The notes: generated by a model not told the origin, from the sequence alone. A DNA stretch of 64,000 bases from Burkholderiales bacterium (GCA_046153355.1 JBJXEY010000388.1:9342-73341), one strand, 5' to 3'. Shown: positions 13,505-54,570, numbered from the stretch's first letter. Made by a program: numbers and translations.

Positions 13505-13570
13505 CCATAAAGCTTCAGGCGTGGCGCCGTACGCATCGCCACGATAAACCTCGATGAAGGAGCTTCAAGC

Positions 13571-14548: not shown

Positions 14549-14575
14549 CGATCAAACAATGAAGCAGGAATTTCG

Positions 14576-32984: not shown

Positions 32985-33089
32985 GCTTTCATCCTTATTT
33001 TTGCGTTTTTCATTGTAGAAGACATTCGCGGCAACAGGGTTCGTATCGATAACGAGATCTTCTCGTGACCGCGTCTGTTGTCGCGGCAT

Positions 33090-33409
33090 GGTTTCGACGG
33101 CATTGCCCAGTTGTTGGGCCGCCCTCGACAACAGCGGCGTCCAACCCTCGCCCTCCATCTGCCGCAACAAATGCAGGGTCGGATACCAGGGCGCATAACG
33201 GCAGAATTGAAGCGTATCGCCAAAGCCGCGGCCGCATCCATTTGCCCGTTAAAACGAAGAGCAACACCAAGGCCTGCTTGGACTGCGGCGTTGTTGGGCG
33301 TGGCGGCGGCGGCATCCTGCATCGACCGCAGAGCCGTTTGGCCGTCACCCTTGGCGAGCGCCGCTTGCGCCCCCGCCAGCAGCGCGTCAATGGATGCAGC
33401 AGGATTCAT
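33090..33409 (-). pseudogene. Collapsed TPR-glycosyltransferase remnant
   Basis: TPR-like N-terminus, frameshift near 33225, then GFGDTLQFCRYA fused directly to PWYPTLHLLRQ...W; 3' end approximate. Confidence 0.7.
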
Positions 33410-35706: not shown

Positions 35707-35783
35707 CCTATCGTTTTGCCACGCAACAAAGCCGGTATCCGGGACCAACGTACTTGTTGGCAAAACAATGCTTGTCGCGACAA

Positions 35784-37253: not shown

Positions 37254-38864
37254 TCAAGTCCCTTCGTTCGGGTCGTGATACATCTCGCCGACTATCGCGG
37301 TGTATCCCGGTTTGCCGGTGGCCAGGTGATAACGCCCATCACGATCACGGCCCAGTTTGCCTTGCGCTCGCAGCCCATCCAGGGCCAAGGCCACTTCGCG
37401 ACCGTCGTCACTCCCGACCGCTTCGACAATCGCCGCATAGAACATCGGCCCCGCGGTCAAGGCTTCTTCAACGGTCTTGAATTTCGCCGGACCTTTGAAG
37501 AATTTGGCGGCACAACGCGTGAGCGGAATCTGGCCATCTTTGCCAAACGGCCGAGTGCAATCGAAGCCTGATTTCGCACCGGTGCGACGGCCTTGCAGCG
37601 ACGGGTCCATGGTCATTCCCATGATGCCTTGGATGATTACCATGTCGGTATCGGCCTGAAAGCGCGTGCCCAGGGCCCAGTTGCATTGCGAGTCGTTGCG
37701 GATGTCGATGTCTTCATCGAAGACATACACGTGTTTCAGCCGCATGATGCCGCCAAACAACGCGAGGATGGCTTGTTTACCTTCGCCGATCGAGCGCTGG
37801 CGCATGGAGACGCGCAGGGTGTTCGATCCGCCCGATGTTTCCACCTGGTATACATCGACGGGCTCGCGTATCGCTGCCTTCAAAATTTTCATGGCATCGG
37901 CCTCGATGCGCATGGCGCTGATCACCGCGCCATCGGATTGATCCAGATCGAAGGCAGAGCCGTGCAGGAAGGTTTGCCACATGGCGTCGCGGCGCATGGT
38001 GAGCGCGGTGCACGTGAACACCGGGTCCATGTGAATCGAGCCGTAGTAACCCATGTATTCGCCGTAGGGGCCTTCGGGTTCGACATAGCCACGCTCATCG
38101 AGGTAACCCTCCATGATCACTTCGGCATCCGCCGGCACGAGAATGTTGTTGGTCAAACTGCGCACCACTGGCACCACTTCATCGCGAAATGCACCAACCA
38201 GATTCAATTCCTCACCAGGACGGCGGGTGGTGGCGGCAAACATATCCAGCGGATGCGCGCCCAGGGTGAAGGTAATCGGTAGTTTTTCGCCACGTTTCAC
38301 GCAGGCCTGATAGATGCGTTTCAGATCCGAGGGCGCGGTGACGTTGGTGCCGGTCTGCGTTTTATTGCGCAGTGACAAACGGCGGCTACCGACGTTGGTG
38401 CGGCCCGTGGCCGGGTCGATGGTGTAGTCGATACCCGAGGAGATGTAGCAACTGCCGTCGAACTCGTGCTGCGGATGGAAGGGCAGCTTGGTTAGATCGA
38501 TTTGATCGCCGGTCAACACCACCTCATGCACCGGTGCTTCGTTGGAGGGCACCTCGACGAATTCGCCGGGATTGGCCATGCGTTTGTAATAGGCCTCGTT
38601 GAATTTCTCCGGCGTGGTACCAAATGCTGCGGCGATACGCCGGCGGCTACCGAGAACCTTGGCGGCGACTTCGTGCCCCTGTGGTCCGGCCTTTTTAAAT
38701 ACCAAACCCTTTTTGCTGGTCTCGATCATTTCGCTCATTTTGGTGAGAGGGGTGGGGGCGTTGATAACCTCCATTTCGCCCATCTCCACCAGGCGTTCCA
38801 CCAGCTTACGCAGACGGAATTTATCCATATCGATATTGGTGCTGCGCGTAACTTTCTTATCCAT
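37254..38864 (-). CDS. UbiD-family prFMN decarboxylase with C-terminal extension
   Basis: AGGAGAGG RBS; EGPYGEYMGY, VFDEDIDI, WALGTR and MDPS motifs. Confidence 0.88.
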   Translation of the reverse strand: MDKKVTRSTNIDMDKFRLRKLVERLVEMGEMEVINAPTPLTKMSEMIETSKKGLVFKKAGPQGHEVAAKVLGSRRRIAAAFGTTPEKFNEAYYKRMANPGEFVEVPSNEAPVHEVVLTGDQIDLTKLPFHPQHEFDGSCYISSGIDYTIDPATGRTNVGSRRLSLRNKTQTGTNVTAPSDLKRIYQACVKRGEKLPITFTLGAHPLDMFAATTRRPGEELNLVGAFRDEVVPVVRSLTNNILVPADAEVIMEGYLDERGYVEPEGPYGEYMGYYGSIHMDPVFTCTALTMRRDAMWQTFLHGSAFDLDQSDGAVISAMRIEADAMKILKAAIREPVDVYQVETSGGSNTLRVSMRQRSIGEGKQAILALFGGIMRLKHVYVFDEDIDIRNDSQCNWALGTRFQADTDMVIIQGIMGMTMDPSLQGRRTGAKSGFDCTRPFGKDGQIPLTRCAAKFFKGPAKFKTVEEALTAGPMFYAAIVEAVGSDDGREVALALDGLRAQGKLGRDRDGRYHLATGKPGYTAIVGEMYHDPNEGT

Positions 38865-38975
38865 GACCACCTCTCCTTTTTGGCGAATGTGCGATGTTCC
38901 CATCTATGCGGGCCGCTGTCGAGGGCAGCCGCACGAATGGCACGCGAGATTGAAAATGCTTGAAAAGCCGCTCCC

Positions 38976-39968
38976 CTACTCGATCTTCAGCTTGCCCTCG
39001 TTTTTCAGGCGTTCGTACAAGGCGCGGTCGCGCGCCAAAAACTGGGCAAAGGCTTCGGTGGATTCGCCGCTGGGGGCGGCGCGCTCCATGCCGTTATTGA
39101 ACAAAATCTTTTCCTGGAAGCCTGGGTCAAGCGTCACCTTCGATACCGAGCGGTTCCAACGATCAATAATTTCGCGCGGTGTACCCGCCTTGAAAAACAG
39201 CCCATACCAATTGCGAATTACGATATCCAGGCCTTCCTCTTTTACGGTGGGCAGGTCGGGATATCCGGCGACGCGTTTCTCGGAAATGATGGCCAGCACG
39301 CGGGTCTTTCCAGCCCTGGCTTGCGCCATCGCGGCGCCGGCGGCAAACACCGTGGCCTGCACTTCTCCCGAAATCACCGCCTGCAGGGCCTGCGGATTGC
39401 TCTTGTAAGGCACGTTGTAAAAATCGATGCCTTGATTGTGACGAAACCATTCGGCGTACAAGTTGCTCGTGGTGGGCGTGCCCGCGGTGCCAAAGGTGAT
39501 GGCGCCGGGTTTTGCCTTGGCAAGCGCGATCAATTCTTTCAATGTCTTAGCCGGGACAGCGGCATTGGCTACGAAGACGCTATTGAATTGCGCGATCATC
39601 ACCGCCGGCGCGAGATCTTTTTGCGGCTCGTAAGGAAGATCTTTCTGCAATACCGGATTCACCGTGATGGCGCCAGCGCTCACCATGAGGACGTTGTAAC
39701 CATCGGCCGAAGCACGCATCAGATTTTGCACCGCGACGATGCCATCGCCCTGCGGCACATTCTCGATGATGATGGGTTGGCCGAATTCCTGACGCAGCGG
39801 CTCGGAGAAGCCGCGCATGATGATGTCCGGCGGGCCGCCGGCGACACTGGCGACCATGACGCGCAACGGTTTGGAAGGGTAGGCCTGCGCCCAAGCACCT
39901 GTTTGAAGGGCTGCCTGGAGGGCGATACACGCAATGGGTGCTGCGCATAATTTCATAACTTTAATCAT
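38976..39968 (-). CDS. Bug/TctC substrate-binding protein
   Basis: Signal peptide; AGGPPD, ADGY and VPYK motifs. Confidence 0.92.
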   Translation of the reverse strand: MIKVMKLCAAPIACIALQAALQTGAWAQAYPSKPLRVMVASVAGGPPDIIMRGFSEPLRQEFGQPIIIENVPQGDGIVAVQNLMRASADGYNVLMVSAGAITVNPVLQKDLPYEPQKDLAPAVMIAQFNSVFVANAAVPAKTLKELIALAKAKPGAITFGTAGTPTTSNLYAEWFRHNQGIDFYNVPYKSNPQALQAVISGEVQATVFAAGAAMAQARAGKTRVLAIISEKRVAGYPDLPTVKEEGLDIVIRNWYGLFFKAGTPREIIDRWNRSVSKVTLDPGFQEKILFNNGMERAAPSGESTEAFAQFLARDRALYERLKNEGKLKIE

Positions 39969-40036
39969 AGAGACTCCTTTGTAGATGTGCATTGCTACGG
40001 AAATGCAATACTAAATTTAAATAATCCCGCAGTAGG

Positions 40037-41656
40037 TTAAGGCTTTCTGCTGTGACCGCGCGGCATCAAGGCCTGCCAGGGCGGCATCGCGCCTACCGGC
40101 ACTTCAATCAAAGCCGGCGAATTTGCGGCAATTGCCTGCGTCAGGTGTTGCGTCAATTGCGCTGGGGAACCCGCGCGCAAACCCAATATACCAAAGGACT
40201 TCGCCAAGCCCATGAAATCCGGATTGGTCAGGTCGCTGCCGTGATAGCGCCCATCAAAGGTCAACTTTTGCGTGCGCCGCACATTGCCGTAACCGCTGTC
40301 GTTGAACACGATGGCGATGCTGTTGATGCCATGCTGCGCCGCCGTGGCCATCTCCGGCATGGTGAACATGAATCCGCCATCCCCGCAGATCGCCACTACC
40401 GGACGATCCGGATGCGCCACCTTCACACCGAGCGAAGTGGCATAGCCATAACCCAGCGAATCCTGGAACCCCGGATAAATAATGCCGCGTGGATGGTAAG
40501 CGGGGAAACCGTTCCAACCGTAAAAGCCGATTTGCGTGATATCGGCAACGACGATGCCTTCATCGGGTAGGCCCGCGCGAATCGCATCCGACCAGGATTT
40601 TTGCGGTTCCAGCACCGAAATCTTTTTTAACGCCGCGGCTTTGACCGCCTCCAGTTCCACTTGGCGCGAGGCACGCGATTGCTCGGGAAGCGCCGCTTTG
40701 ATTGCCGCGAGTGCGCCGGCAGCGCTTGCAACGATGACCAAATCGGTGCGCGCCGGCTTTTCAATCTGCATGGCGTCGATGTCGATGCGTATGGTTTTCA
40801 TCCGCTCATCCGCACCCCAGGCGTGCCCTTCCATGTAACGCGTCCCCACCGCCAATACCGCATCCACTTCGGGCCATAACAAATTGCCGCCGATAACCGT
40901 CTGCGCAAGATAGTGACGGTCAGAAACCGTGCCGCGTGCGTGGCGCGTCATCATGATGGGCGCCTCCAGCGCCTCTGCCAGCGCGAGCAATTCTTTTTCC
41001 GCACCGAACGCACCACCGCCAGCAATGATCAAGGGCTTCTTCGCGCTGGCGAGCCACTGCGCCGCCTGCTCGATGGATTTCTGGTCCGGGACGGGATCGG
41101 GCAGGCGCGCACCGCGAACGCCCAGGGAAACTTCCGCATTTTCTTGCGTAACATCATCCGGCACTTGAAACAACACCGGGCCACAGCGGCCGCTCAATGC
41201 GAGGGTGACCGCCTCGTTGATACCCGATGAAACTTTGGACGCATGATCGGCCAGGATCTGACCCTTGGTGAGTGGCGCGAATACCGCCGACTGGTCCGAG
41301 AGCTCATGCAGAATCCCCAGGCCACGGCCGATATTGCGTCGGGAAATCTGCCCAGTGAGCGCCAGCACCGGCGTATTGCTCGCCTGCATGGTGCACACCG
41401 CGGTGCAGGTGTTGAGTATGCCGGGGCCGGGCACCACCAGGAATGCACCAAGCTTGCCGGTGGATTCCGCATAGCCATACGCCATATACGCCACGCCTTG
41501 CTCATGGCGCGAATTGATCACGCGGATGCTGCTGCGCTCGTGATACAGCGCATCGAAAATGTAGTCGAGCTGCACGCCGGGCAAGCCGAACAAAGTATCG
41601 ACGCCGTTGTGCTTCAAGGACTGCACAAAGGCCTGTGCGCCGGTCATAACTGCCAT
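40037..41656 (-). CDS. Thiamine pyrophosphate-dependent enzyme (acetolactate synthase large subunit-like)
   Basis: FGLPG, RHEQ and GDGGFMF...ND TPP motif. Confidence 0.9.
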   Translation of the reverse strand: MAVMTGAQAFVQSLKHNGVDTLFGLPGVQLDYIFDALYHERSSIRVINSRHEQGVAYMAYGYAESTGKLGAFLVVPGPGILNTCTAVCTMQASNTPVLALTGQISRRNIGRGLGILHELSDQSAVFAPLTKGQILADHASKVSSGINEAVTLALSGRCGPVLFQVPDDVTQENAEVSLGVRGARLPDPVPDQKSIEQAAQWLASAKKPLIIAGGGAFGAEKELLALAEALEAPIMMTRHARGTVSDRHYLAQTVIGGNLLWPEVDAVLAVGTRYMEGHAWGADERMKTIRIDIDAMQIEKPARTDLVIVASAAGALAAIKAALPEQSRASRQVELEAVKAAALKKISVLEPQKSWSDAIRAGLPDEGIVVADITQIGFYGWNGFPAYHPRGIIYPGFQDSLGYGYATSLGVKVAHPDRPVVAICGDGGFMFTMPEMATAAQHGINSIAIVFNDSGYGNVRRTQKLTFDGRYHGSDLTNPDFMGLAKSFGILGLRAGSPAQLTQHLTQAIAANSPALIEVPVGAMPPWQALMPRGHSRKP

Positions 41657-41789: not shown

Positions 41790-42782
41790 CTATTGATCGA
41801 TCTTGACGCCGGACTTCACCACCAGCTCTTGCCCGCGAACCCTGTCCTGCGCGAGAAATACTTTGAAGTCTTCGATCGAATTGCCGATGGGCTCGAAGCC
41901 GCCACGCTTTAAGAACCTTTCGTGAAACCCGGGGGAATGAATCACCCGCGCTAGTTCGGCGTTGATTCTCTGCACCAACGCCCGCGGTGTTCCAGCCGGC
42001 GCGAACACCCCATAGAAGAGCTTGGTGTCGAATTTCGGCAGACCGACATCATCGAAGTTGGGAGTATCCGGAAGATTGGGATTGCGCGAGCTGCCGGGAA
42101 TCAAAATGGCCTTAGCCTGCCCGGTTTTGATGCGTTCGATGATATCCGGTGCGGCGACAAGATAAGTCAGATGCACGTCGCCGCGCTCAAAGGCAAGCAT
42201 CGCCGGCGCAGAACCCGCGAATGGGATGTGGGTCATGCTTGCCCCGGTTTTGTCTTTGATCCATTCAAGCAAAAGGTGCGAGTCGCCCCCAATTCCGAGG
42301 GAGGCATAATTGAGTTTTGCTGGATTCTGCTTGGAATACTCCACCAGCTCCTTGAAGGAATTCGCTGGCACATTGCGATTCATGATGAGCACGCCCTGCG
42401 CATAGACCGCGTTGGTGACCGGCTCGAAATCCTTTTCCGGGTCGTAGGAGAGTTTGTTATACAAAAACTGATTCAAGGACACCGAAGCGGAATTTAGCAG
42501 GCACAGGGTATAACCTTCGCGGTCGCCGCCTTTGCACGCGGTGGCGGCGATCACGGTATTCGCGCCGGGCTTGTGATCGAGCACGAAGCCCTGCCCGGTT
42601 TGCTCGCGGAATCCCTCGCCCAACGCGCGCGCCAGAATATCCACCGGGCCTCCTGGGGGAAACGGCACGATCATGCGTACCGGCTTTCTAGGATAGTCCT
42701 GCGCCAATGCAAGGTTTGCCAACGTGCCCAGAAAAATCACTCCTACCATCGACATCCAGATTGCTCGCGATTTCATGTCCAT
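41790..42782 (-). CDS. Bug/TctC substrate-binding protein
   Basis: AAGGAG RBS; FPPGGPVD and GDSHL motifs. Confidence 0.92.
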   Translation of the reverse strand: MDMKSRAIWMSMVGVIFLGTLANLALAQDYPRKPVRMIVPFPPGGPVDILARALGEGFREQTGQGFVLDHKPGANTVIAATACKGGDREGYTLCLLNSASVSLNQFLYNKLSYDPEKDFEPVTNAVYAQGVLIMNRNVPANSFKELVEYSKQNPAKLNYASLGIGGDSHLLLEWIKDKTGASMTHIPFAGSAPAMLAFERGDVHLTYLVAAPDIIERIKTGQAKAILIPGSSRNPNLPDTPNFDDVGLPKFDTKLFYGVFAPAGTPRALVQRINAELARVIHSPGFHERFLKRGGFEPIGNSIEDFKVFLAQDRVRGQELVVKSGVKIDQ

Positions 42783-42790
42783 GCTCCTTT

Positions 42791-43882
42791 TTAGCTGCCC
42801 GCAAGCCGTTCGGCGGTGCGTTCCGATATGCCCGGCCTCCCGGTAAGATTCATTTGTTCGACCATACGACGCATATGCTGTTCGGCGCGCAGCGGCGGAT
42901 AACGCTCGGGGTTCCCGGCGGTCTTGCAGGTATGCAGGCATTCAATCATTTCCATGCCGTTCGGATGGAAGAAAAATGCCAACGAAATTCTCGGCTGATC
43001 GGTCAAATTGATGGCCCGGTGCAGGCTCGAGGTGAACACATCGTTGGTCCACATGGCGAACATATCCGCGATATTGACCACCAGACTTCCCTCCAAGGGT
43101 GGCACCTCGATCCACTGCCCGGCCGCATTGCGCACTTGCAGGCCGCCCAACGCGTCCTGCGTCAACAAGGTGAACGCCCCGTAATCGGTATGCGGCGAGA
43201 ACCCCCATTTATTGCGCGCGCGCGCCTCGGGGGAGAGCGGTGAATAAAAATTGAAAAATAGCGAACATCCGGGATAGCGAAACGCCCGATCGAAATAGGT
43301 TTCGGGCAACTCAAGGCTCATTGCGAAGGCTTGAACCAGTTGCTGGCCGATTTCGACGCGCTTTTGCAAATGCGATTTCATCAAAGCTTCGAATCCCGGC
43401 AACACGGTATCGTCGGGCCATTGCGAGTTGCCGGCGCTGTAACGGCCTTGCAAGGGTTCACCCGCAAAAATCTCACGGCCCATGCCAAAGCGCTCCTTGG
43501 CGTCTGCCGCATCGAGCGCGGCCGCGTCCGGATTGACCCCGCCGGTACGGATGTATCCCTGCCTCACGGAGGAGTTGTCGGTGCGGGTTTTCATCTTTTC
43601 ATCGAGTGGCAGCGCGAAAAACTTCAAACCCATGCCATGCACCAGGTCAATTTCGCTCTGGCTCAATCCGTGGCCCAGCAAATAAAAAAATCCAATGTCG
43701 ATGCAGGCTTGACGTATTTGCTCGGCCACCGCTAGGCGCTGCCGCGGGGTTCCCTTCACGAACTGGGCGAGGTCAACGACAGGCAGGGTCGACAGCGCCG
43801 CGCGCTCGACGCCTGCGCCTTGGTAGCGCATGTCAAATGCCGCGTAATCCTGTAGATCCTGGCTATCGAGCGGTCGGACCAT
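42791..43882 (-). CDS. 2-oxoglutarate/Fe(II) oxygenase, isopenicillin N synthase family
   Basis: GFFYL, HTDYGAFTLL, GGLQV and HR...R.S motifs; start uncertain. Confidence 0.9.
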   Translation of the reverse strand: MVRPLDSQDLQDYAAFDMRYQGAGVERAALSTLPVVDLAQFVKGTPRQRLAVAEQIRQACIDIGFFYLLGHGLSQSEIDLVHGMGLKFFALPLDEKMKTRTDNSSVRQGYIRTGGVNPDAAALDAADAKERFGMGREIFAGEPLQGRYSAGNSQWPDDTVLPGFEALMKSHLQKRVEIGQQLVQAFAMSLELPETYFDRAFRYPGCSLFFNFYSPLSPEARARNKWGFSPHTDYGAFTLLTQDALGGLQVRNAAGQWIEVPPLEGSLVVNIADMFAMWTNDVFTSSLHRAINLTDQPRISLAFFFHPNGMEMIECLHTCKTAGNPERYPPLRAEQHMRRMVEQMNLTGRPGISERTAERLAGS

Positions 43883-43978
43883 CCCAATATCCCCCTGAAA
43901 CTGAAAAATACTTGCCATTTTTCGCACAACACGACAACGGAAACGCCGCGCCACGGTTAAATCGGGTAACTCGACCTC

Positions 43979-46114
43979 TCACCCGGATTTTAATTCGCGA
44001 AGCTGCATGATGACTTTCTCGAAGTGCGTCCAGGCAAGCGCCTGCCCCTCGCTAAATGCAACCAATTTGGACTCTTCGCACACCCCTTTGATGTCAGCGC
44101 CCGAAAAACCCTCGCTGCCCGCGGCTAGGCGCACAGCGAGTTCCGCGCGAACGGGTTCGGCCAAGATCGCACCCTGGAGAAACAAGCGCGCGATCTCGCC
44201 GCGCTCAGCCTCATCAGGCATGGGAACATAAATTCGCGTGCCCAATCTGCCAGGGCGCAGCACCGCGCCATCCACCAGATCGATGCGATTGGTGGCGCCG
44301 ATGACCAGAATATTCGCCACCGCCTTGATGCCATCCAATTCCGAGAGAATCTGATTGACCACGCGCTCAGTAGTACGCGAGCCCGAATCTATGCCGCGCT
44401 TGGGGGCGATGGCATCGAGTTGATCGAAAAAAATAATACACGGCGACAACTGTCGCGCCACGCGGAAGATGTGGCGAATCGCGGCTTCCGACTCGCCCAG
44501 CCATTTGCCGAAAATTTCGGGGCCATCCACGGCGAGAAAGTTCACGCCCGCTTCATTGGCAATGGCCTTCGCGATCATGGTTTTGCCGGTACCCGATGGC
44601 CCATGTAGCAAAACACCACGCGGCGGCGTAATGCCAGCTTTCTCCAATTCGCCAGGGTTCGTCAGCGAGCGAACAATCAACACCTGCAGTTCGCGCTTAA
44701 TACGTTCGAGGCCGCCGATTTCGCTCCATTTCACATCCGGTATGGCGATAAACGATTCGCGAATCGCCGAGGGGCGAATGGTGGATAAGGCACCGTTGAA
44801 ATCCTCGATCTCCACGGTAATGAATTCGGATTTGATATTGAAGGCATCCAAATGGTTCTCAAGCATCGAGGTGCTGCGGCGCAAGGCATTTAAACCCGCC
44901 TCTCGGCATAACTCCATGATGTCGGCGCCGACAAAACCATGCGTGGCGGCGGCGATTTGCGGCAGGTAATCGGCGGCGTCATTCGCCAGCGGCATGTCGC
45001 GCGTGTGGATGCGAAGGATTTCTAGGCGCCCGTCGACTGAGGGCGAATCGATAAACACTTCGCGATCGAAGCGCCCCGGCCGGCGCATGGCGGTATCCAG
45101 GGCGTCGATGCGGTTGGTGGTGCCGATGATCACCACGCCCTCCACCTTGGTGAGGCCATCCATTAAGGAAAGTAATTGCGTCACCGAGCGCACGTCGCTT
45201 TGCGAACCGACGTGTTCTCGGTTGGGAGCGATGGCATCCAGCTCATCGATAAAAATGATCGACGGGGCGTGATGCGCCGCTTCGTTGAAAATTTTTCGCA
45301 GGTTGGCCTCGGTCTCGCCCTGCATGGTGCCCACCAACGCGGGGCCGTTGATATAGAAAAAATTCGCGTCGATCTCGTTGGCAATCGCCTTGGTGAGATG
45401 CGTCTTGCCGCTGCCCGGCGGCCCGTAGAGAACGATACCTTTGGGCGCTTGAATACCCAGTTGGCGGTACACATGCGGGCATTGCAGTGGCAACTGAATC
45501 AGCTCGCGGATGAGTTTGATCTCCGGCCCGACGCCGCCGACATCCTCGAATGTGATATCGAAAACGCCGTGGTCGTGGCCTTCCTCGGGCAATTCAATCT
45601 CAATTTTGGTATCGGCGGTGATAATTCCTGGGCCACCGGGCAGCCTCACTACCCGATAAATGGTGCCCGCTCTGGAGTGATGAAAGGTGGAAAACAGGAT
45701 CGACCCCTGCATCACCGGCGTGGCGTTCTCGACGAAATTTTCCTTCAAGTGCTGCAACAGATGATGCGCCTCGGAAACATCGATGGGTGCGGTGAGCACC
45801 ACGCGCTCAGCCGGCCCGAGATCGACCTTCTGCACGCGCACTTCCTCCGACAATTTGCATTTGATCGATTGGCGCAACAAACGATCCAGACGTATCGACT
45901 TCCCACCCTTGTCCGCCTCGATAGGCGGCCCGACCCGGCCCAGGGTCTCGCGCCCCATGGGCGATTCGATCGACACCACATCGCCCTCGGCGATATCGGC
46001 TGATGCCATGAGTTCGGGGTCGAGGTTCACCATGCACTGCGAGGAGGTGGTGAGCTCCGACTGAACACGATTGACGCGCGCGCGTACGTACTTCAATGCC
46101 TTAGGCTCATTCAT
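43979..46114 (-). CDS. CDC48/p97/VAT-like double-ring AAA+ ATPase
   Basis: N-domain; D1 GPPGSGKT/FIDELD/RRPGRFD; D2 GPSGTGKT/FFDQLD/RPGRL; linker PSAIRE..P.V.W..IGG. Confidence 0.92.
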   Translation of the reverse strand: MNEPKALKYVRARVNRVQSELTTSSQCMVNLDPELMASADIAEGDVVSIESPMGRETLGRVGPPIEADKGGKSIRLDRLLRQSIKCKLSEEVRVQKVDLGPAERVVLTAPIDVSEAHHLLQHLKENFVENATPVMQGSILFSTFHHSRAGTIYRVVRLPGGPGIITADTKIEIELPEEGHDHGVFDITFEDVGGVGPEIKLIRELIQLPLQCPHVYRQLGIQAPKGIVLYGPPGSGKTHLTKAIANEIDANFFYINGPALVGTMQGETEANLRKIFNEAAHHAPSIIFIDELDAIAPNREHVGSQSDVRSVTQLLSLMDGLTKVEGVVIIGTTNRIDALDTAMRRPGRFDREVFIDSPSVDGRLEILRIHTRDMPLANDAADYLPQIAAATHGFVGADIMELCREAGLNALRRSTSMLENHLDAFNIKSEFITVEIEDFNGALSTIRPSAIRESFIAIPDVKWSEIGGLERIKRELQVLIVRSLTNPGELEKAGITPPRGVLLHGPSGTGKTMIAKAIANEAGVNFLAVDGPEIFGKWLGESEAAIRHIFRVARQLSPCIIFFDQLDAIAPKRGIDSGSRTTERVVNQILSELDGIKAVANILVIGATNRIDLVDGAVLRPGRLGTRIYVPMPDEAERGEIARLFLQGAILAEPVRAELAVRLAAGSEGFSGADIKGVCEESKLVAFSEGQALAWTHFEKVIMQLRELKSG

Positions 46115-46123
46115 GCACCAGTC

Positions 46124-46630
46124 CTACTTCTTTTTGAAGTCCGGCGAGTCTTCGATTTCCTCGTAGCTCGAGCCTTTGTCCAGGCCCAGCGCCTCGGTGA
46201 AATTGGGCTCGATGGCGGCGATTTGCGCCTCCTCGTCGTCGCTGTCGTTAAAGTGCTGGTAGGTCACGCCGTCTTTTCGCAGCGGCAGTTGAATCAACTC
46301 GCCCGCGACCCAGGAGTAGCGCACGCCATCGAGAATGGTGTGTCCCTTGCCTTTCCAGAAATAAAAAATCTTGCCCCCCGGATGGTGCTGCCTGCCGCTT
46401 TTGCTGCCTGGGGGAATGTGCTGCACGTAAAAAATCTTGGTATTCATCGATACATCGGTCAGATTCGGATGCATGTACCACTGCATCAATCCGTGGCGAT
46501 TGCTCTCCACCGGAATGTCATTGCCGCGAAGGATGAATATTCCTTTTCTGCGCTCGCGTTGCTTATCCCTTAACTCCATCAATTCGTCGAATAGGTTTCG
46601 CTTGGCGAGTTGTTCTTTACGTTCACTCAT
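46124..46630 (-). CDS. Cupin-domain protein (degenerate metal site)
   Basis: SGRQHHPGG...G.G.T..DG.RY.W..G....LP....V.YQHFN. Confidence 0.8.
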   Translation of the reverse strand: MSERKEQLAKRNLFDELMELRDKQRERRKGIFILRGNDIPVESNRHGLMQWYMHPNLTDVSMNTKIFYVQHIPPGSKSGRQHHPGGKIFYFWKGKGHTILDGVRYSWVAGELIQLPLRKDGVTYQHFNDSDDEEAQIAAIEPNFTEALGLDKGSSYEEIEDSPDFKKK

Positions 46631-46684
46631 TTCATTCTCCCTGCATCGGCTTGAGCATAAATCGGTTGGTGTGTTTGATTTGCG

Positions 46685-47209
46685 TTACAACTGGTCGCCA
46701 AATTTTTTCTGGTAATCCAGAAGCACTTCCAACTGCACCAGTTCGCTCGAGGACTCCTGCCACTGCGGCAAGTAGATAAACGCGATCCAGCGCGTCACCA
46801 CGCCCTCGTTGTTGAAGTGCTGATGCTCGACACCGCCCGGCTTGATGGGCAGAAGTATCAGATCTCCCGCGCTCCACTCGTAGCGCTCTCCATCGCAAAT
46901 CGTCCAACCCGAACCCTCCAGCACGAAGATCACCAAGCCGCCCTGGTGACGGTGCTTGCCGCTTTGCTTCTTGATATTGGAGATGAATACGCGCCAATCC
47001 TGCAACACCGTGGGAAAGGATTCGGTGGCAAGAAAATACTCCGCGTGCGACTGGCGTGACATCTGCACGACGACGTCCGATTTCTTGATGTGAATCTTGC
47101 CCGCCTGCTGCCGATCGTGAAAATCAGCTAGTTTCTTTAAAAACTGCTCGTACAGCGCTCCGGGCAAGGGCCCGCGCTCGCGGGTTTTGGTTCTTTCCAT
47201 TTCAGCCAT
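46685..47209 (-). CDS. Cupin-domain protein (3-His site)
   Basis: SGKHRHQGG...EGSG...DGERYEW.AGD...LP...VEHQHFN. Confidence 0.85.
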   Translation of the reverse strand: MAEMERTKTRERGPLPGALYEQFLKKLADFHDRQQAGKIHIKKSDVVVQMSRQSHAEYFLATESFPTVLQDWRVFISNIKKQSGKHRHQGGLVIFVLEGSGWTICDGERYEWSAGDLILLPIKPGGVEHQHFNNEGVVTRWIAFIYLPQWQESSSELVQLEVLLDYQKKFGDQL

Positions 47210-47284
47210 GACTCACCACCTTTCGATTTTTCACCATCGACAATTCGTCGGACATGCCGCCAACATTTTTGCGCGCAAACAATT

Positions 47285-47296
47285 GGGGTACGTCCC
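47285..47296. repeat. GGGGTACGTCCC REP-like motif, copy 1
   Basis: Identical 12-mer at 48306-48317; AT-rich flanks. Confidence 0.6.
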
Positions 47297-47304
47297 TGTT
47301 TTAT

Positions 47305-48282
47305 TTATTTCTGCAAGCCGACTTTTTGCACGATTTCACTCCAATAGGGAATTTCCGCGCGGATGCGTTCGCCCAGTTCGTCGGGCGTACTGGCCGCCAG
47401 CTCCAGGCTATCTGCCGCCGCGCGATCTCTTGCTGCATTGCTGCGAAGGATGACGGCGACTTCCTGATTCAAGCGATCGACAATCGGCCGCGGCGTTTTA
47501 GCCGGCAGCACCAGGCCCATCCAAGTGGTGACATTGAAGTTCGGCACGCCGGCTTCCACCATGGTGGGCAAGGTGGGGATCGCCGGTGAGCGCTTCGGCC
47601 CGGTGTTCGCCAACGCGCGAACCTTGTTGGCGCGGATATTGGGGATGGCCGCGCCGCCGCCAGAGAACATCAAGTCCACCCTGCCCGCCAACAAATCCAC
47701 CACAGCGCCACCGGTGCCCTTGTAGGGAACGTGAAGGATATCGACAGCGGTGTTCATCTTGAATAGTTCACCGGCCAGATGCAGCGTGGTGCCAGTGCCA
47801 ATCGATGCGTAGGTGAGTTTGCCCGGTTGCGATTTCGCCAGTGCTACCAGATCCTGTACCGAATTGACCGGCACGCCGGGATGTGTCACCAGCCACAAAG
47901 GAGAAAAAAACAACAACGACACCGGCGCAAAATCGCGGCGCGAGTCGTAAGGAAGATCGCGGCGCATGGCGTTATTGAGCACCAAGCCCGAAGCGGTGGC
48001 GGCGAGCATGGTGTAGCCATCCGGCGTCGCTTTGGCCACGGCTTCCGCGCCGATGGCTTCGCTCGCGCCAGGACGGTTGATCACCACGATGGATTGCCCC
48101 AGGCGTTCGGTGAGCCCTTGCGTCACCACGCGGGCGAAGTTATCCATGAGGGCGCCGGCATCAGTGGGCACGATGACTTGTATTGAGCGACTCGGATAGG
48201 TTGCGGGGCTTTGCGCCAATGCGGTTTTAAGTAGCAAGGCGCAAAGCAACTGTGGTGCCAGCATGCGAATAGTGAACTGCAA
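47305..48282 (-). CDS. Bug/TctC substrate-binding protein
   Basis: AQSPATYPSR, NRPGA, GTTLHL and HVPYKG motifs. Confidence 0.92.
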   Translation of the reverse strand: MQFTIRMLAPQLLCALLLKTALAQSPATYPSRSIQVIVPTDAGALMDNFARVVTQGLTERLGQSIVVINRPGASEAIGAEAVAKATPDGYTMLAATASGLVLNNAMRRDLPYDSRRDFAPVSLLFFSPLWLVTHPGVPVNSVQDLVALAKSQPGKLTYASIGTGTTLHLAGELFKMNTAVDILHVPYKGTGGAVVDLLAGRVDLMFSGGGAAIPNIRANKVRALANTGPKRSPAIPTLPTMVEAGVPNFNVTTWMGLVLPAKTPRPIVDRLNQEVAVILRSNAARDRAAADSLELAASTPDELGERIRAEIPYWSEIVQKVGLQK

Positions 48283-48305: not shown

Positions 48306-48318
48306 GGGGTACGTCCCC
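48306..48318. repeat. GGGGTACGTCCCC REP-like motif, copy 2
   Basis: Imperfect palindrome GGGG-TACGT-CCCC at the amidohydrolase stop codon. Confidence 0.6.
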
Positions 48319-49166
48319 TAATTACCGAAGCCGTAAAGCTTTGCCGGATTTTCTACCAGTATTTTTTCAAGCAATCCCTGATCGGGAACCAGGCGATAAA
48401 GCAATTCTAAAAGATCCCCGTCGTTGGGCACCTCAGGCTTGGCGTACAAAAGATGCGGCCAGTCGCTCGCCCACAGCGCGCGCGAAGGTGCGACGGCAAG
48501 CGCCGCTCGTACGTAAGGCGCGACATCACTCCATGGCGGGCCCGTTAGCGAACGTCTGTCGCCATTGGACAAAAGAATCCACCAGTTATCGCGTGTAAGC
48601 ATCTCCAATACGAAACGAAACCCGAGTTGATCAAGACCGAGAGCGAAATCCGGCGTGCCTAAATGATCAATCACCACGGGAATATCCAGCGCACGCAAGG
48701 ATTGCGCATGCCGCAGCAGATCCTCCGCGCTGCCGCCAAGTTTTACCTGCCACCCAAGCGGTCGGATGCGCTCAATGCAGCGGTTGACCATGGCCATGTC
48801 GGTGGCGCCGGAAAGTTGAAAGCGGATACCACGCACGCCCGCCCGATTCAATCGCGCGAGTTCATCATCGCTAACCGAATCATCGATCGCCGCCACACCG
48901 CGATAATTGGCTTGTCCTACAAGACTATCGGATAGCAATCGATTGTCTGTGCCGTAGACCGCGGGCTGCACGATCACCCCGCGAGAAATGCCAAGCGTAT
49001 CGTGCATACGCCGCAAGTCTGCAAAATTTGCCGCAGGCGGCTCGTAGGTCCGCTGCAACTTGGGCGGATATTTCACCGTGTCGCCGAACACGTGAAAATG
49101 GCAGTCGCAACTACCCGGTGGCGGCGGGCGGGACGGCAAGCGGGTTTCGCGGATGTGGGAAAGCAT
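48318..49166 (-). CDS. Amidohydrolase_2 family, 2-pyrone-4,6-dicarboxylate lactonase (LigI)-like
   Basis: DCHFHVFG, VQP..YGTDN, GVRGIRF, IDHLG and WASDWPH motifs. Confidence 0.85.
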   Translation of the reverse strand: MLSHIRETRLPSRPPPPGSCDCHFHVFGDTVKYPPKLQRTYEPPAANFADLRRMHDTLGISRGVIVQPAVYGTDNRLLSDSLVGQANYRGVAAIDDSVSDDELARLNRAGVRGIRFQLSGATDMAMVNRCIERIRPLGWQVKLGGSAEDLLRHAQSLRALDIPVVIDHLGTPDFALGLDQLGFRFVLEMLTRDNWWILLSNGDRRSLTGPPWSDVAPYVRAALAVAPSRALWASDWPHLLYAKPEVPNDGDLLELLYRLVPDQGLLEKILVENPAKLYGFGN

Positions 49167-49238
49167 GCGACGAGTGTAGCATTCGCATTTTGCGACGGTG
49201 GAGGTGACGTTCGCAAAATCGACCGTGGAGGAAGCAGC

Positions 49239-50255
49239 ATGAATGCGCGAGACCAGAACACACCATTGAGCGACACGCACGATACGCCGGATAAATCATT
49301 GCATCCAGTCAATGTTGCTTTTGCCGACTACGACCGCACCCGGCCACTAATTGATGGGCGCGTACAGGCGCCGGGAATCAAACTCTCCATCGACACCAAA
49401 TTCATCGCCGAGTTCTGCGCCCGTCCCGTCTATGAGGAATACGACGCGGCGGAAATGTCATTTTCCTGGTTCGTCGCGGCGCGCGCCCGCGGTGAACCCG
49501 TCATCGCGCTACCCGTATTTCCTTTGCGCATGCCGGTGTTGGCCTATGTGCTATGCCGCAACGGTGCATCTTTTACTAAGCCCTCCGATCTGATCGGTAA
49601 GCGAATTGGCGTGGCGCGTTACCGCTACACGGTCAACCTGTGGCTGCGCGGCATTTTCAAGGAGCACTACGGACTTGCACCCGAGCAAGTGACTTGGGTG
49701 ACCAGCGGCGAAGAAGACGCAGGCTATGTACCACCTCAGGGCATACACATTGAATTGAATGCAGGGCGGCTCTCCACGCAGGCGTTGCTCGCCAGAGGCG
49801 AAGTCGATGCCGTGCTGCTCGCGCGCCTGCCTGATGATTACCTGCGCGGTGAAACCGATTTTCGCCGCCTGTTCCCCGATGCGCGCGCCGAGATGCGAGC
49901 CTATTACGCTAAAACCGGCATCGTCCCGATTACCCATGTCATGGTAATGGGCCAGGCTCTGTATGACCGTGAACCGTGGATCGCCGCGAACCTCACCCAA
50001 GCATTCATCGATGCGCAGCGTATGTGTGACGATTTTTATCTGGACTGCTCTAAACACCTGTCGTATCCCGAGGCGGTGTTTTTCATGGAGGAACAGCGCG
50101 AGACCTACGGCGCCTATCCCTGGTCCCACGGCATCGATGGCAACCGCCAAAATATCGATACCTTCGTGCGTTATGCGCAGGAACAGCAATACATACCCCG
50201 TGTTCTGACCATCGAGGAAATGTTCGCAACCAATACCTTGGCATTGAAGCGATAG
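49239..50255 (+). CDS. 4,5-dihydroxyphthalate decarboxylase (OphC/Pht5)-like protein
   Basis: DYDRTRPLIDG, D.AEMS, LPVFP.R, W.RG, TG..PI.H and PW..G motifs; GGAGG RBS. Confidence 0.8.
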   Translation: MNARDQNTPLSDTHDTPDKSLHPVNVAFADYDRTRPLIDGRVQAPGIKLSIDTKFIAEFCARPVYEEYDAAEMSFSWFVAARARGEPVIALPVFPLRMPVLAYVLCRNGASFTKPSDLIGKRIGVARYRYTVNLWLRGIFKEHYGLAPEQVTWVTSGEEDAGYVPPQGIHIELNAGRLSTQALLARGEVDAVLLARLPDDYLRGETDFRRLFPDARAEMRAYYAKTGIVPITHVMVMGQALYDREPWIAANLTQAFIDAQRMCDDFYLDCSKHLSYPEAVFFMEEQRETYGAYPWSHGIDGNRQNIDTFVRYAQEQQYIPRVLTIEEMFATNTLALKR

Positions 50256-51263: not shown

Positions 51264-52721
51264 ATGGCCACCGTCGCCTATAAAGACCTTCGCGAATTCA
51301 TCGAACTCGCGAAACAAATCGACAGCTACAAAATCATCGAAGGCGCCGATTGGAATGAGGAAATCGGCACGCTCACCGAAGTCACCTGCGAGCACTTTCA
51401 AGATCCGCCGCTGTTGATATTCGACAAGATTAAGGACTACCCGCCGGGCTATCGAGTGGTGGGTACGCTGATTACTTCGCACAAACGTTGGGCGCTGGCA
51501 CTGGGCTTGCCGCTGGATTGCACGCGCCTGGAGACGGCGCGCAATGCCACGCGAAAAATCAAAGCAAGCTCGCCGATCCCGCCGCGCGAGGTCAAGACCG
51601 GGCCGGTGATGGAAAACATCATGACCGGCGATGATATTGATCTTTTAAAATTTCCCGTGCCGCTGTTTCACAAGGGCGACGGCGGGCGCTACATCGGCAC
51701 CGGTTGCACCGTGATCAACAAAGATCCGGAATCGGGCTACGTCAACATGGGCACCTACCGCCTGCAGGTGCATGAAAAAAATCTCATGGGTCTTTGGATC
51801 AGCCCTGGGCAGCAGGGGCGCATCATCGCCCAGCGTTACTGGGAACGCGGCGAGAGCTGCCCCATCGTCTGCACCTTCGGCATCGACCCGCTGACTTTCA
51901 TGTCTTCCTACACCATCGTGCCCTGGGGAAAGTCGGAGCTGGATTTTGCCGGCGGCATGCGCGGCGAACCCATCGACGTGATCAAGGGGCCGCTCACCGG
52001 GTTGCCGATTCCCGCTTATGCGGAGATCGCCATCGAAGGCGAAGTGCCGCCACCCAGCGTGGAAAAACGCGCCGAAGGCCCGTTCGGTGAATGGCCGGGT
52101 TATTACTCGGGCGGCACCCAAGGCACCGGCGAAGACCAACCGGTGATCCGCGTGAAGGCCATCTATCACCGCAATGATCCAATCCTACATAACCAGACGC
52201 CCAATTGGCCGGGGGCGGTGCATACCGCCATCGACTTTCGCGCCGGGTTACTGTGGGATCAGTTGGAGTCAGCCGGCGTGCCCGGCATCAAGGGCGTCTA
52301 CATGTTCAATCCGTATTTCGTGGTGGTCTCGATCCAACAGCAATATGCCGGCCACGCCAAGCAGGCCGGACACGCCGTCATCGGCTGCGCCGCCGGTGCG
52401 CGCCAGGGCCGCTACACCGTGGTGGTGGATGAAGACATCGACCCGACCAAATTAAAAGAGGTGCTGTGGGCTATCTGGACGCGCGCCGATCCGGCAGAAG
52501 ATATCGATGCCATCGCCGGTTGTTGGAACACACCGCTCGATCCGCGCATGCCGCCGGATAAGCGCAACGCGCGCGATTACACCACCGGCCGCTGCATCAT
52601 TTATGCGGTGCGGCCCTTCGCCTGGCGCGATAAATTCCCCAAGACCAGCCGCTCCGAGCCAGAACTCAGGCGCCGCATCATGGAAAAATACAAAGATATG
52701 TTCAACTTTCCCTCGGTATAG
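51264..52721 (+). CDS. UbiD-family prFMN decarboxylase
   Basis: DLREFI, NMGTYR, EGPFGEWPGY, VVDEDID and LDP motifs. Confidence 0.92.
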   Translation: MATVAYKDLREFIELAKQIDSYKIIEGADWNEEIGTLTEVTCEHFQDPPLLIFDKIKDYPPGYRVVGTLITSHKRWALALGLPLDCTRLETARNATRKIKASSPIPPREVKTGPVMENIMTGDDIDLLKFPVPLFHKGDGGRYIGTGCTVINKDPESGYVNMGTYRLQVHEKNLMGLWISPGQQGRIIAQRYWERGESCPIVCTFGIDPLTFMSSYTIVPWGKSELDFAGGMRGEPIDVIKGPLTGLPIPAYAEIAIEGEVPPPSVEKRAEGPFGEWPGYYSGGTQGTGEDQPVIRVKAIYHRNDPILHNQTPNWPGAVHTAIDFRAGLLWDQLESAGVPGIKGVYMFNPYFVVVSIQQQYAGHAKQAGHAVIGCAAGARQGRYTVVVDEDIDPTKLKEVLWAIWTRADPAEDIDAIAGCWNTPLDPRMPPDKRNARDYTTGRCIIYAVRPFAWRDKFPKTSRSEPELRRRIMEKYKDMFNFPSV

Positions 52722-53705: not shown

Positions 53706-54488
53706 TTAGAGCAAGCCGCGTAAAAACGCCGCACGTTGGGATGCCCCCGCCATCAAGAAGCTTTGATCGGTACCTCCACCGATAAAGCGCATCCCCATCG
53801 AGATATATTTTTTCGCCAGCACCGGATCGTGCACACCACTCATACCGGGTGAAACGCGATGCTTCGCGCACGCGGCAATGACCCTGGCGAAAGCCTCCTC
53901 CACCTTGGGATCGCCGAATTTCCCCGGCACACCCAGTTCATCGCAAAGATCGTTGATTCCGATCAACAGAGCATTCACACCAGGCACCGCGGCAATCGCT
54001 TCGGCATGGTCGATCGCCGCGACCGATTCCAACATCGCCACCACTAGCGTTTGCTCGTTCACCTGACGCGTGGCCTCGGTTACCGGGGTGCTACGAAAAG
54101 CAAGTTGCGCCTGGATGCCCGCGTAGGAGCGCGTGCCCATAGGCGGGTACAAGCATTGCGCCACAGCACGGCGCGCGTCCTCAGGCGAATTGATATGCGG
54201 AAAGATAATTCCCTGCGCCCCCGCATCGAGCAGGCGCGACGCATGATGCGACGCTTCGCCGGGCACACGAACCAAGGGCGTAATGCCCGCCGGCAGCGCC
54301 GCGCACACGATCTGCGCCGCGGTATCGACGTCGATAGTGCTGTGCTCCATGTCGATGGAGAACCAATCGAATCCTGCGGTGACTGCCAACGCTGCAATAT
54401 CCACGGTGCGCGCCTGGCGCAGCACCATGCCCAACGCCAGTTCGCCCGCAGCAAGGCGAGATTTCGCACGATTGGGGTAAGCACTCAT
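53706..54488 (-). CDS. HpcH/HpaI class II aldolase
   Basis: GFDW..IDMEH, LVRVP, LDAGA, YPP.G.R, MLES and IGINDL; AAGGAG RBS. Confidence 0.9.
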   Translation of the reverse strand: MSAYPNRAKSRLAAGELALGMVLRQARTVDIAALAVTAGFDWFSIDMEHSTIDVDTAAQIVCAALPAGITPLVRVPGEASHHASRLLDAGAQGIIFPHINSPEDARRAVAQCLYPPMGTRSYAGIQAQLAFRSTPVTEATRQVNEQTLVVAMLESVAAIDHAEAIAAVPGVNALLIGINDLCDELGVPGKFGDPKVEEAFARVIAACAKHRVSPGMSGVHDPVLAKKYISMGMRFIGGGTDQSFLMAGASQRAAFLRGLL

Positions 54489-54570
54489 TGTTGTGACTCC
54501 TTCGTGACTCGTATCGAGGCTACTGTAACGCGGCACCTCATGCAACGCGACGCGACATCGCGCACTCGGA

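Follow-up and report, generated by a model that had tools for sequence, protein, structure and literature searches.

Gentisate 1,2-dioxygenase (GDO) and salicylate dioxygenase bicupins (PDB ID: 3bu7, 2d40, and 2phd), together with the monocupin 8ch4, share the cupin fold and an HxH...H triad; in some GDOs, the second domain is devoid of the three-histidine site. VAT and p97/Cdc48 belong to the classical AAA+ ATPases and consist of an N domain followed by two ATPase domains, D1 and D2. In a stretch of 64,000 nucleotides from a Burkholderiales bacterium (GCA_046153355.1, JBJXEY010000388.1:9342-73341; hereafter the window, with positions counted from its first letter), relatives of both groups are encoded side by side: the genes of two cupins, A and B, are followed on the minus strand by the gene of a CDC48-like ATPase with an unusual D2 domain. 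The association recurs in many bacterial phyla, which points to a so far undescribed system for the breakdown of aromatic compounds, made up of an enzyme and an unfoldase.

Dedicated AAA+ proteins that stand beside one metabolic enzyme include the Rubisco activases (Rca, CbbX, and CbbQ/O), NorQ/NorD, and RavA-LdcI. The ATPase of the window is likewise encoded beside, and co-occurs with, one enzyme, and its proposed task is also of the same sort, namely opening or repairing an active site or inserting a metal; however, the known examples are single-ring proteins of the Rca/CbbX or MoxR types, whereas the protein described here is a double-ring CDC48, and its client would be a cupin. By analogy, the module may work like the enzyme-specific AAA+ activases while lying outside their families. 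XylT-type ferredoxins, small redox proteins that reactivate catechol 2,3-dioxygenase by electron transfer, are similarly accessory to an Fe(II) ring-cleavage dioxygenase, but they involve no ATP-driven unfoldase and their client has another dioxygenase fold. To our knowledge, bacterial Cdc48 homologs are rare and their clients essentially unknown. A full-text literature search, which had supplementary files outside its range, returned no description of a cupin-CDC48 module and no GDO with an ATPase partner; the initial annotation of the window had likewise known of no characterized cupin-cupin-CDC48 module.

Split bicupin and Cdc48-type ATPase of the window

Cupin A (174 residues; 46685-47209, minus strand) and cupin B (168 residues; 46124-46630, minus strand) pass the gathering cut-off of Cupin_2 (PF07883, 27.2 bits) with 36.4 and 30.6 bits, respectively. 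The two are paralogous, as had been proposed from the paired motifs SGKHRHQGG/SGRQHHPGG and VEHQHFN/VTYQHFN, both of which were found: their identity reaches 29% over 153 residues (E = 1e-19). Cupin A keeps the metal-type triad H86-x-H88...H129, plus H131, and none of these four histidines varies in the alignment of A proteins (29 of 29). Cupin B, in which two lost histidines had been noticed, has Gln81 and Tyr124 in place of the first and third ligands, so that two of the three are gone. The triad is missing across the 29 aligned B proteins, which nevertheless retain Gln125, His126, Asn128, and a C-terminal tail resembling VDRGSGFEQLE..PEY. Given the invariant triad of A and its loss in B, cupin A looks like a metalloenzyme subunit and cupin B like a conserved non-catalytic partner.

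Among solved structures, the GDO 3bu7 is the closest to either cupin: A aligns with each of its two domains (E = 1e-12) and B with the C-terminal one (E = 4e-07). Compared with the GDO bicupins as a group, A corresponds to the domain that binds the metal and B to the C-terminal domain. Among the AlphaFold2 models (predicted local distance difference test, pLDDT, of 80 for A and 73 for B), the top fold matches of A are 5-nitrosalicylate 1,2-dioxygenase (8ch4) and 3bu7, while that of B is 3bu7, in both cases amid many generic cupins of similar score. Neither TIGR02272 (cut-off 442.1; 24.1 bits for A and 19.6 for B) nor the 5-aminosalicylate dioxygenase model NF049978 (cut-off 650; 25.3 and 23.7 bits) is reached. 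On these scores, A and B are only distant relatives of the gentisate and 5-aminosalicylate dioxygenase equivalogs.

Several members of the family carry the A half and then the B half in one chain of about 350-365 residues (e.g., on contigs C126 (locus L004, 364 residues), C116, and C151 of the window's own genome, in locus L026, and in proteins P0244-P0249 with 351-361 residues). These fused relatives match the GDO bicupins in length (about 360 residues) and domain order. Since single-chain A-B fusions exist in the same family, A and B probably form a heteromer, and the proposal that they are the two halves of a GDO-like bicupin is supported by the fusions as well as by the shared relative 3bu7. 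In contrast to the GDO bicupins, where two cupin domains reside in one polypeptide, the window has two separate genes, the metal ligands are lost throughout the B family, and A bears an N-terminal tag. A lookup of protein clusters for B returned only 'hypothetical protein' and cupin clusters. A fusion of B with an AAA domain was sought among longer proteins, where only the fused bicupins of 351-361 residues appeared, a blank that constitutes weak evidence.

In the ATPase (711 residues; 43979-46114, minus strand), two classical AAA domains come after a CDC48_N domain (PF02359 matches residues 25-98 with 38.7 bits, above its cut-off of 35.1; the two stretches of PF00004 give 280.7 bits). Its N domain, recognized by PF02359 and by an alignment of 29 N domains, covers about residues 1-185 (45560-46114, minus strand). 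Alignments with VAT and p97 extend over the full length of the protein (E = 1e-178 to 1e-162), and its nearest solved structure is VAT (PDB ID: 5g4f, E = 1.6e-178). With these two it has in common the N-D1-D2 order, the CDC48_N domain, the two classical AAA domains, and an aromatic D2 pore loop. It differs from them in the clade-wide glutamine of D2, in the lack of the hydrophobic-Tyr-X (HbYX) C-terminal motif, which mediates proteasome docking, and in scoring below the cut-off of TIGR01243 (685.6 bits against 802.65, over model positions 17-675 of 733). Unlike p97/Cdc48, it is a bacterial protein whose association is with a single family of enzymes and not with adaptors of the ubiquitin type. 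The C-terminus reads ...LRELKSG, and the HbYX motif occurs neither in the window protein nor in 12 relatives, a reading that leaves out L030, L032, and L033. Source annotations of the module's proteins are limited to 'AAA family ATPase', 'transitional endoplasmic reticulum ATPase', 'cupin domain-containing protein', and 'hypothetical protein'.

The D1 domain is canonical in its Walker A motif, Walker B motif (IIFIDELD), sensor Asn, and Arg fingers. D2 contains the Walker A motif, the sensor, and the Arg, while its Walker B motif, aligned to FLDEID of VAT, reads IIFFDQLD (Asp564-Gln565; 44420-44425, minus strand), a natural Glu-to-Gln replacement at the catalytic position, in agreement with the 'DQ' of the initial annotation. 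The D-Q pair of D2 is invariant (12 of 12) and present in 117 of the 119 nearest protein clusters, which were fetched by a word-based search made without the D-Q motif; the DE of D1 is found in 118. In the ATPase tree, the D-Q clade is set apart from two D-E homologs by a long branch. Judging from these motifs, D2 may be an ATP-locked scaffold and D1 the motor; a canonical D1 motor combined with a non-hydrolyzing D2 corresponds to an NSF-like division of labor. The reading of Gln565 as ATP-binding but non-hydrolyzing is supported by the engineered E566Q variant of the actinobacterial Cdc48-like protein Cpa, which is reported to keep nucleotide bound without hydrolyzing it (PMC6017811).

The same source describes Cpa as an N-D1-D2 protein without a classical HbYX motif, with a degenerate D1 and a strictly canonical D2 (Glu566), encoded in a psd-pssA operon and binding the 20S proteasome (PMC6017811). 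Membership of the window ATPase in Cpa was considered and rejected: relative to the features given there, its pattern is reversed (D1 canonical, D2 with Gln), and its neighbor is a bicupin. Loci L029-L033, which represent Geodermatophilaceae within the D-Q clade, also differ from Cpa, having a convergent bicupin and, where the motif was read (L029), D-Q in D2. An affiliation with anti-phage defense was rejected as well: PADLOC gives no match for A, B, or the neighboring oxygenase, and the matches of the ATPase (IetA and TRIP13) are at the level of the AAA domain only.

By their sequences, the parts of the module thus come from known superfamilies (cupin and classical Cdc48-type AAA+), with both below curated equivalog or subfamily cut-offs, and each departs from its relatives in a defining feature: the split and degenerate second cupin domain on one side and the D2 glutamine on the other.

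Synteny and genome-level co-occurrence

Conserved synteny of the cupins with a D-Q type CDC48 had been set beforehand as the test of the module, and it was borne out. Altogether, 95 ATPase loci were compared: 13 full-length relatives from a scan of genome contigs, 80 from a metagenome scan, the window, and a second locus of its own genome. Cupins were detected by combining tblastn with two hidden Markov models (HMMs) built from the A and B matches. A cupin or bicupin gene lies at most 2.6 kb from the ATPase gene in 85 of the 95 loci and at most 400 bp away in 82. Where at least 1.2 kb of sequence is available on both flanks, a cupin is present in 48 of 52 loci, and six of the cupin-less loci (L063, L073, L078, L086, L116, and L117) have at least one short flank. 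As the window's own genome contains 25 open reading frames (ORFs) matching the cupin HMMs in 6.2 Mb, chance adjacency would account for only a few per cent of loci; the observed synteny is far beyond that, and the two families also co-occur at the level of whole genomes (see below).

Counting cupins within 1.7 kb of the ATPase gene (C), the order of the window, A>B>C, is found in 19 loci, B>C>A in 16, and a fused AB>C in seven. Eight loci have a divergent A with B>C, and another eight show B>C with the remainder cut off; C>A with the upstream part cut off occurs in five. C is followed by a convergent fused bicupin in four loci and by convergent B and A in four others, C>B>A is seen in two, and several further arrangements are singletons, while 13 loci have no cupin inside 1.7 kb. 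At least six gene orders, fused A-B forms among them, are therefore represented, and they are clade-coherent on the ATPase tree. The split pair that had been presented as the form of the module is thus real in the window, but it is one of several arrangements, and fused forms are common. In about 60 of the 95 loci, B or the fused B half lies directly upstream of the ATPase gene on the same strand. The coupling of B and ATPase genes is tight, with gaps of 9-30 nt. Carriers belong to Alpha- and Betaproteobacteria, Desulfobacterales, Syntrophales, Chloroflexota, and Actinomycetota, and, by source names, also to Paenibacillus and Methylomirabilis.

Some loci deviate in their cupins. In a shallow subclade (L067, L081, L084, L088, L094, and L118), the D-Q ATPase stands behind a different, divergent fused bicupin of about 340-400 residues that carries no tag, and L089 and L101 possess this bicupin in addition to genes in the order B>C>A.

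One could argue that the proteins do not interact directly, the ATPase being a general stress or proteostasis factor of aromatic catabolic islands in which cupins are frequent passengers. The contexts are indeed variable catabolic clusters, and the distribution is sporadic, suggesting horizontal transfer: among 200 other genomes of the window's order, there is no other D-Q ATPase, and the two CDC48-like genes present both have D-E in D2 and no cupin within about 4 kb. The B family was not detected in the same 200 genomes or in 400 other genomes of the phylum. Yet the bicupin is the sole gene family kept beside the ATPase through all rearrangements, and the D-E homologs offer a comparison within one phylum. 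A set of 401 Chloroflexota genomes was sampled around the genome of L024 and not selected by the D-Q motif. A CDC48-like match at E <= 1e-120 is found in 78 of them; when the 30 best loci are ranked, the first 11 (at least 599 bits) are all D-Q and the following 19 all D-E. A cupin lies in the 1.5-kb flanks of seven of the 11 D-Q loci, as opposed to none of the 19 D-E loci. B-family genes (E <= 1e-25) occur in ten of the 401 genomes, nine of which belong to the 11 D-Q genomes, so that nine genomes have both, one has B only, two have the D-Q ATPase only, and 389 have neither. In one of the two genomes with the D-Q ATPase only (G620), divergent fused bicupins adjoin both ATPases. Set against these figures, the passenger explanation has only a slight chance of being correct. 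ATPases of the CDC48/VAT-like D-E type are common in Chloroflexota (19 inspected loci, L133-L151).

Copy numbers within genomes are uneven. The window's own metagenome-assembled genome (MAG) has eight A/B loci for two D-Q ATPases: four split and three fused loci on contigs C42, C275, C444, C394, C116, C151, and C126, plus the window. The second ATPase locus, on C126, consists of a fused bicupin, a CDC48 paralog (50% identity), and a Bug gene. In genome G584, the ratio of bicupin paralogs to ATPases is four to two. A third CDC48 at the end of contig C275 was considered and dropped, as the ORF there is phosphoribosyltransferase-like and has no CDC48 match. The dependence of bicupin and ATPase on each other appears to be mutual, with one or two ATPases serving several bicupins in trans. 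The idea that the cupin family extends much more widely than the ATPase clade, which would have favored a mere accessory factor, is weakened by the genome-level co-occurrence.

A mutual rather than one-way co-occurrence is also what could be expected if the ATPase motor were integral to the catalytic cycle of the bicupin, comparable to the AAA+ subunits of Mg-chelatase, which drive metal insertion, and made a reaction feasible that is out of reach for the cupin by itself, possibly one proceeding without O2. The tight coupling of the B and ATPase genes and the presence of the module in MAGs labeled Desulfobacterales, Syntrophales, and Methylomirabilis would suit such ATP-coupled catalysis. ATPases of the classical CDC48 clade are, however, known as protein unfoldases and not as small-molecule catalysts, most A/B loci of the multi-copy genomes are unlinked to an ATPase, and the taxonomy and physiology of the MAGs are uncertain. 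An ATPase that takes part in catalysis is accordingly regarded as very improbable.

Possible remodeling of the bicupin by the ATPase

Cupin A starts with a short conserved tag (residues 1-12, MAEMERTKTRER; 47174-47209, minus strand), which lies in a low-confidence part of the model (pLDDT 49-54 for residues 1-20). All 22 A rows that begin at Met display the motif M-[AVT]-[ED]-x-x-[RM]-[TV]-[RKM]-x-R-E, with the consensus M-A-[ED]-x-x-R-T-[RK]-x-R-E and with Arg10 and Glu11 invariant in 22 of 22. The mean frequency of the top residue is 0.73 over the first 12 residues, compared with 0.51 over the following ten columns and 0.65 over the whole protein. In fused members of the family, the related sequence MERER[TI]K stands at the start. 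Each of the seven close A or fused paralogs of the window's own genome has the tag, whether beside an ATPase or not, and eight generic bicupins of the same genome are without it; in its distribution, it thus seems specific to this bicupin family. AAA+ unfoldases typically grip conserved terminal tails that are modeled at low confidence, which makes the tag a candidate recognition or entry element for the ATPase.

Gene anatomy, paralogy, motif conservation, synteny, and genome-level co-occurrence are observed; we infer that A and B form a heteromer and that the ATPase contacts and remodels the bicupin, and likewise the direction and purpose of the remodeling, the metal, and the substrate. The bicupin would most likely open or otherwise transform a hydroxylated aromatic ring in aromatic-acid catabolism, with A supplying a three-histidine metal site, presumably for Fe(II), and B acting as the non-catalytic structural half. 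The CDC48-like ATPase would be its dedicated ATP-driven remodeler: D2, with glutamine in Walker B, would bind ATP without hydrolysis and hold the hexamer together, while the fully canonical D1 would be the motor. The ATPase might engage the bicupin, plausibly through the tag of A, and partly unfold or open it, whereupon the metal site could be loaded, exchanged, or repaired, or a dead-end state released. The logic of a dedicated remodeler is that of the other enzyme-specific AAA+ activases. This is the explanation toward which we lean, although its probability falls a little short of an even chance. A bolder version is rather doubtful: it envisages a family of obligately CDC48-dependent Fe(II) cupins, gripped at an 'RTRxRE' element, with D1 pulling on an ATP-locked D2 and the barrel opened for installation or renewal of the metal or for ATP-coupled catalysis, anaerobes included. 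A predicted complex of A, B, and the CDC48 N domain (29-row alignments each; scored partner, the N domain) gave no answer and a score of 0.00; having been run with no controls, it speaks neither for nor against binding.

The tag could instead serve destruction. If the ATPase unfolded the tagged bicupin for a cellular protease, or disassembled it, oxidatively damaged or unneeded enzyme would be removed; the same synteny and co-occurrence would be expected, degrons for AAA+ unfoldases classically take the shape of a conserved low-confidence terminal tag, and Fe(II) ring-cleavage enzymes are easily inactivated by oxidation. No protease gene, however, recurs in the loci, the ATPase C-terminus offers no proteasome-docking motif, and a degrader encoded so tightly beside its sole client across phyla would be unusual. 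Turnover is therefore considered unlikely, if less so than any role in which the bicupin is not the client.

Such a role would fall to bicupins acting as ligand-sensing adaptors or regulators of the ATPase, with the clients elsewhere, for instance among the hexameric UbiD decarboxylases. Cupin domains can sense ligands, and A also matches AraC_binding (E = 6e-06); several bicupin paralogs exist per ATPase in the two multi-copy genomes mentioned above; and the gene most tightly joined to that of the ATPase is the non-catalytic B. UbiD-like decarboxylases are, moreover, the largest non-cupin neighbor family (11 loci, as well as L027 and two genes in the window), typically in the order B>CDC48>A>UbiD. 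They nevertheless accompany the module in only about 11-13 of the 95 loci, no other candidate client is conserved, and the invariant three-histidine site and His131 of A are what would be expected of a metalloenzyme. An adaptor function is on balance distinctly improbable.

Several observations weigh against a dedicated remodeler of the bicupin. The two scans that yielded the loci used patterns containing the D-Q motif and thus did not give an unbiased sample of CDC48-like genes, and related loci and sequences are not independent of each other. Four well-flanked loci (L024, L040, L080, and L110) have no cupin nearby; the genome of L024 contains a strong B-family gene elsewhere. The one Chloroflexota genome with B only (G638), which may be incomplete, yielded just an FtsH-like match and no D-Q ATPase. 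Six of the eight A/B loci of the window's own genome are away from any CDC48, so that service by the ATPase would have to act in trans. Within the ATPase, the D2 pore loop KWLG is kept in 116 of 118 clusters, and a near-invariant aromatic loop is unexpected for a D2 that is only a scaffold; the D1 pore loop (G-T-x-x-G, mostly with Tyr in the relatives) reads TMQG in the window and has no aromatic residue. The MAGs of Desulfobacterales and Syntrophales fit an O2-dependent dioxygenase poorly. Finally, Ile94 of cupin A aligns with the position of the Arg that, in salicylate and gentisate dioxygenases, binds the substrate carboxylate, which suggests that the substrate may not be gentisate-like.

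If the bolder version is correct, no bacterial Cdc48 before this one would have had a dedicated client defined for it, and ring-cleavage enzymes would follow a new principle. More generally, the module would place a double-ring unfoldase among the few enzyme-specific AAA+ activases. Some GDO-like enzymes might then need an ATP-driven helper, which would affect their heterologous expression and pathway engineering. The ATPases form a large clade that spans phyla, has a natural trap-type D2, and is linked to just one family of enzymes, which provides a testable client and a candidate recognition tag. Cultured carriers, by source or record name, include Paenibacillus abyssi, Modestobacter muralis DSM 100205, and Blastococcus species.

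Gene array and catabolic surroundings

The ORFs of the window lie exactly where the initial annotation had placed them, on the minus strand in the order cupin A, cupin B, CDC48, oxygenase, and Bug. A Bug gene (47305-48282, minus strand) precedes cupin A at a distance of 95 nt; 54 nt separate cupin A from cupin B, which has a Shine-Dalgarno-like GGAGAA site ahead of it. The gap between the stop of cupin B and the ATG of the ATPase measures 9 nt (46115-46123), as claimed, and 24 nt lie between the ATPase and a 2-oxoglutarate-Fe(II) oxygenase (42791-43954, minus strand; DIOX_N and 2OG-FeII_Oxy). The short gaps and the common strand suggest that cupin A, cupin B, and CDC48 are co-transcribed. A scan of the locus for promoters and terminators gave no more sites than shuffled sequence, and a sequencing-run lookup for 42700-47400 listed DNA contig holders (shares of up to 0.36) but none for RNA. 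The Bug/TctC solute-binding protein downstream of the oxygenase (41790-42941, minus strand; TctC match) probably starts at the Met of MDMKS..., leaving a short gap after the oxygenase gene. Both the oxygenase and this Bug gene had been counted as the continuation of the array; they are co-directional with it in the window, but in 20 related loci searched by tblastn, the oxygenase has no counterpart and the Bug gene is matched in only two.

No third gene is conserved beside the ATPase and the cupins in the 95 loci; in the neighbor clustering, an apparent cluster of 49 loci was a shadow-ORF artefact and was excluded. Besides UbiD, the neighbors include FAD aromatic-ring hydroxylases, Amidohydro_2 proteins, a Rieske LigXa-like oxygenase, a DHDPS-like protein, an HpcH/HpaI-type aldolase, and recurring solute-binding proteins (TctC, NMT1, and SBP_bac families). 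The expanded A/B paralogs also reside in catabolic clusters (UbiD, FAD hydroxylases, the Rieske LigXa-like oxygenase, Amidohydro_2, and HpcH aldolase). By their domain content, these neighbors are the signature of aromatic-acid catabolic islands, which would fit a ring-cleavage or related role of the bicupin.

Further genes of the window were identified by domain assignment. On the minus strand, they encode an Amidohydro_2 protein (48318-49280), a thiamine diphosphate enzyme of the PRK08266 type (40037-41656), another Bug protein (38976-39992), and a UbiD-like decarboxylase of the prenylated flavin mononucleotide type (37254-38903). A second UbiD-like decarboxylase of this type (51264-52721, plus strand) lies on the other flank of the module, and an HpcH/HpaI aldolase is located at 53706-54545. 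At least eight Bug/TctC genes are packed into approximately 20 kb (38976-59478), at 38976, 41790, 47305, 50262, 52507, 56897, and 58501, plus one more paralog; together with the aldolase and the thiamine diphosphate enzyme among them, they make this region look like a dense carboxylate-catabolism island. A long ORF (49002-50255, plus strand) overlaps the Amidohydro_2 gene of the opposite strand and has a weak NMT1 match (E = 0.003).

Next to the second module of the window's own genome (L004, on contig C126), positions 12762-15135 encode a fusion of an adenylate/guanylate cyclase with PilZ as well as a Fic/DOC protein that contains DUF4172. In the window itself, at 31911-35763 (minus strand), a DUF4915 protein adjoins a GT41-type glycosyltransferase with tetratricopeptide repeats, a pairing unrelated to the cupin and CDC48 genes.

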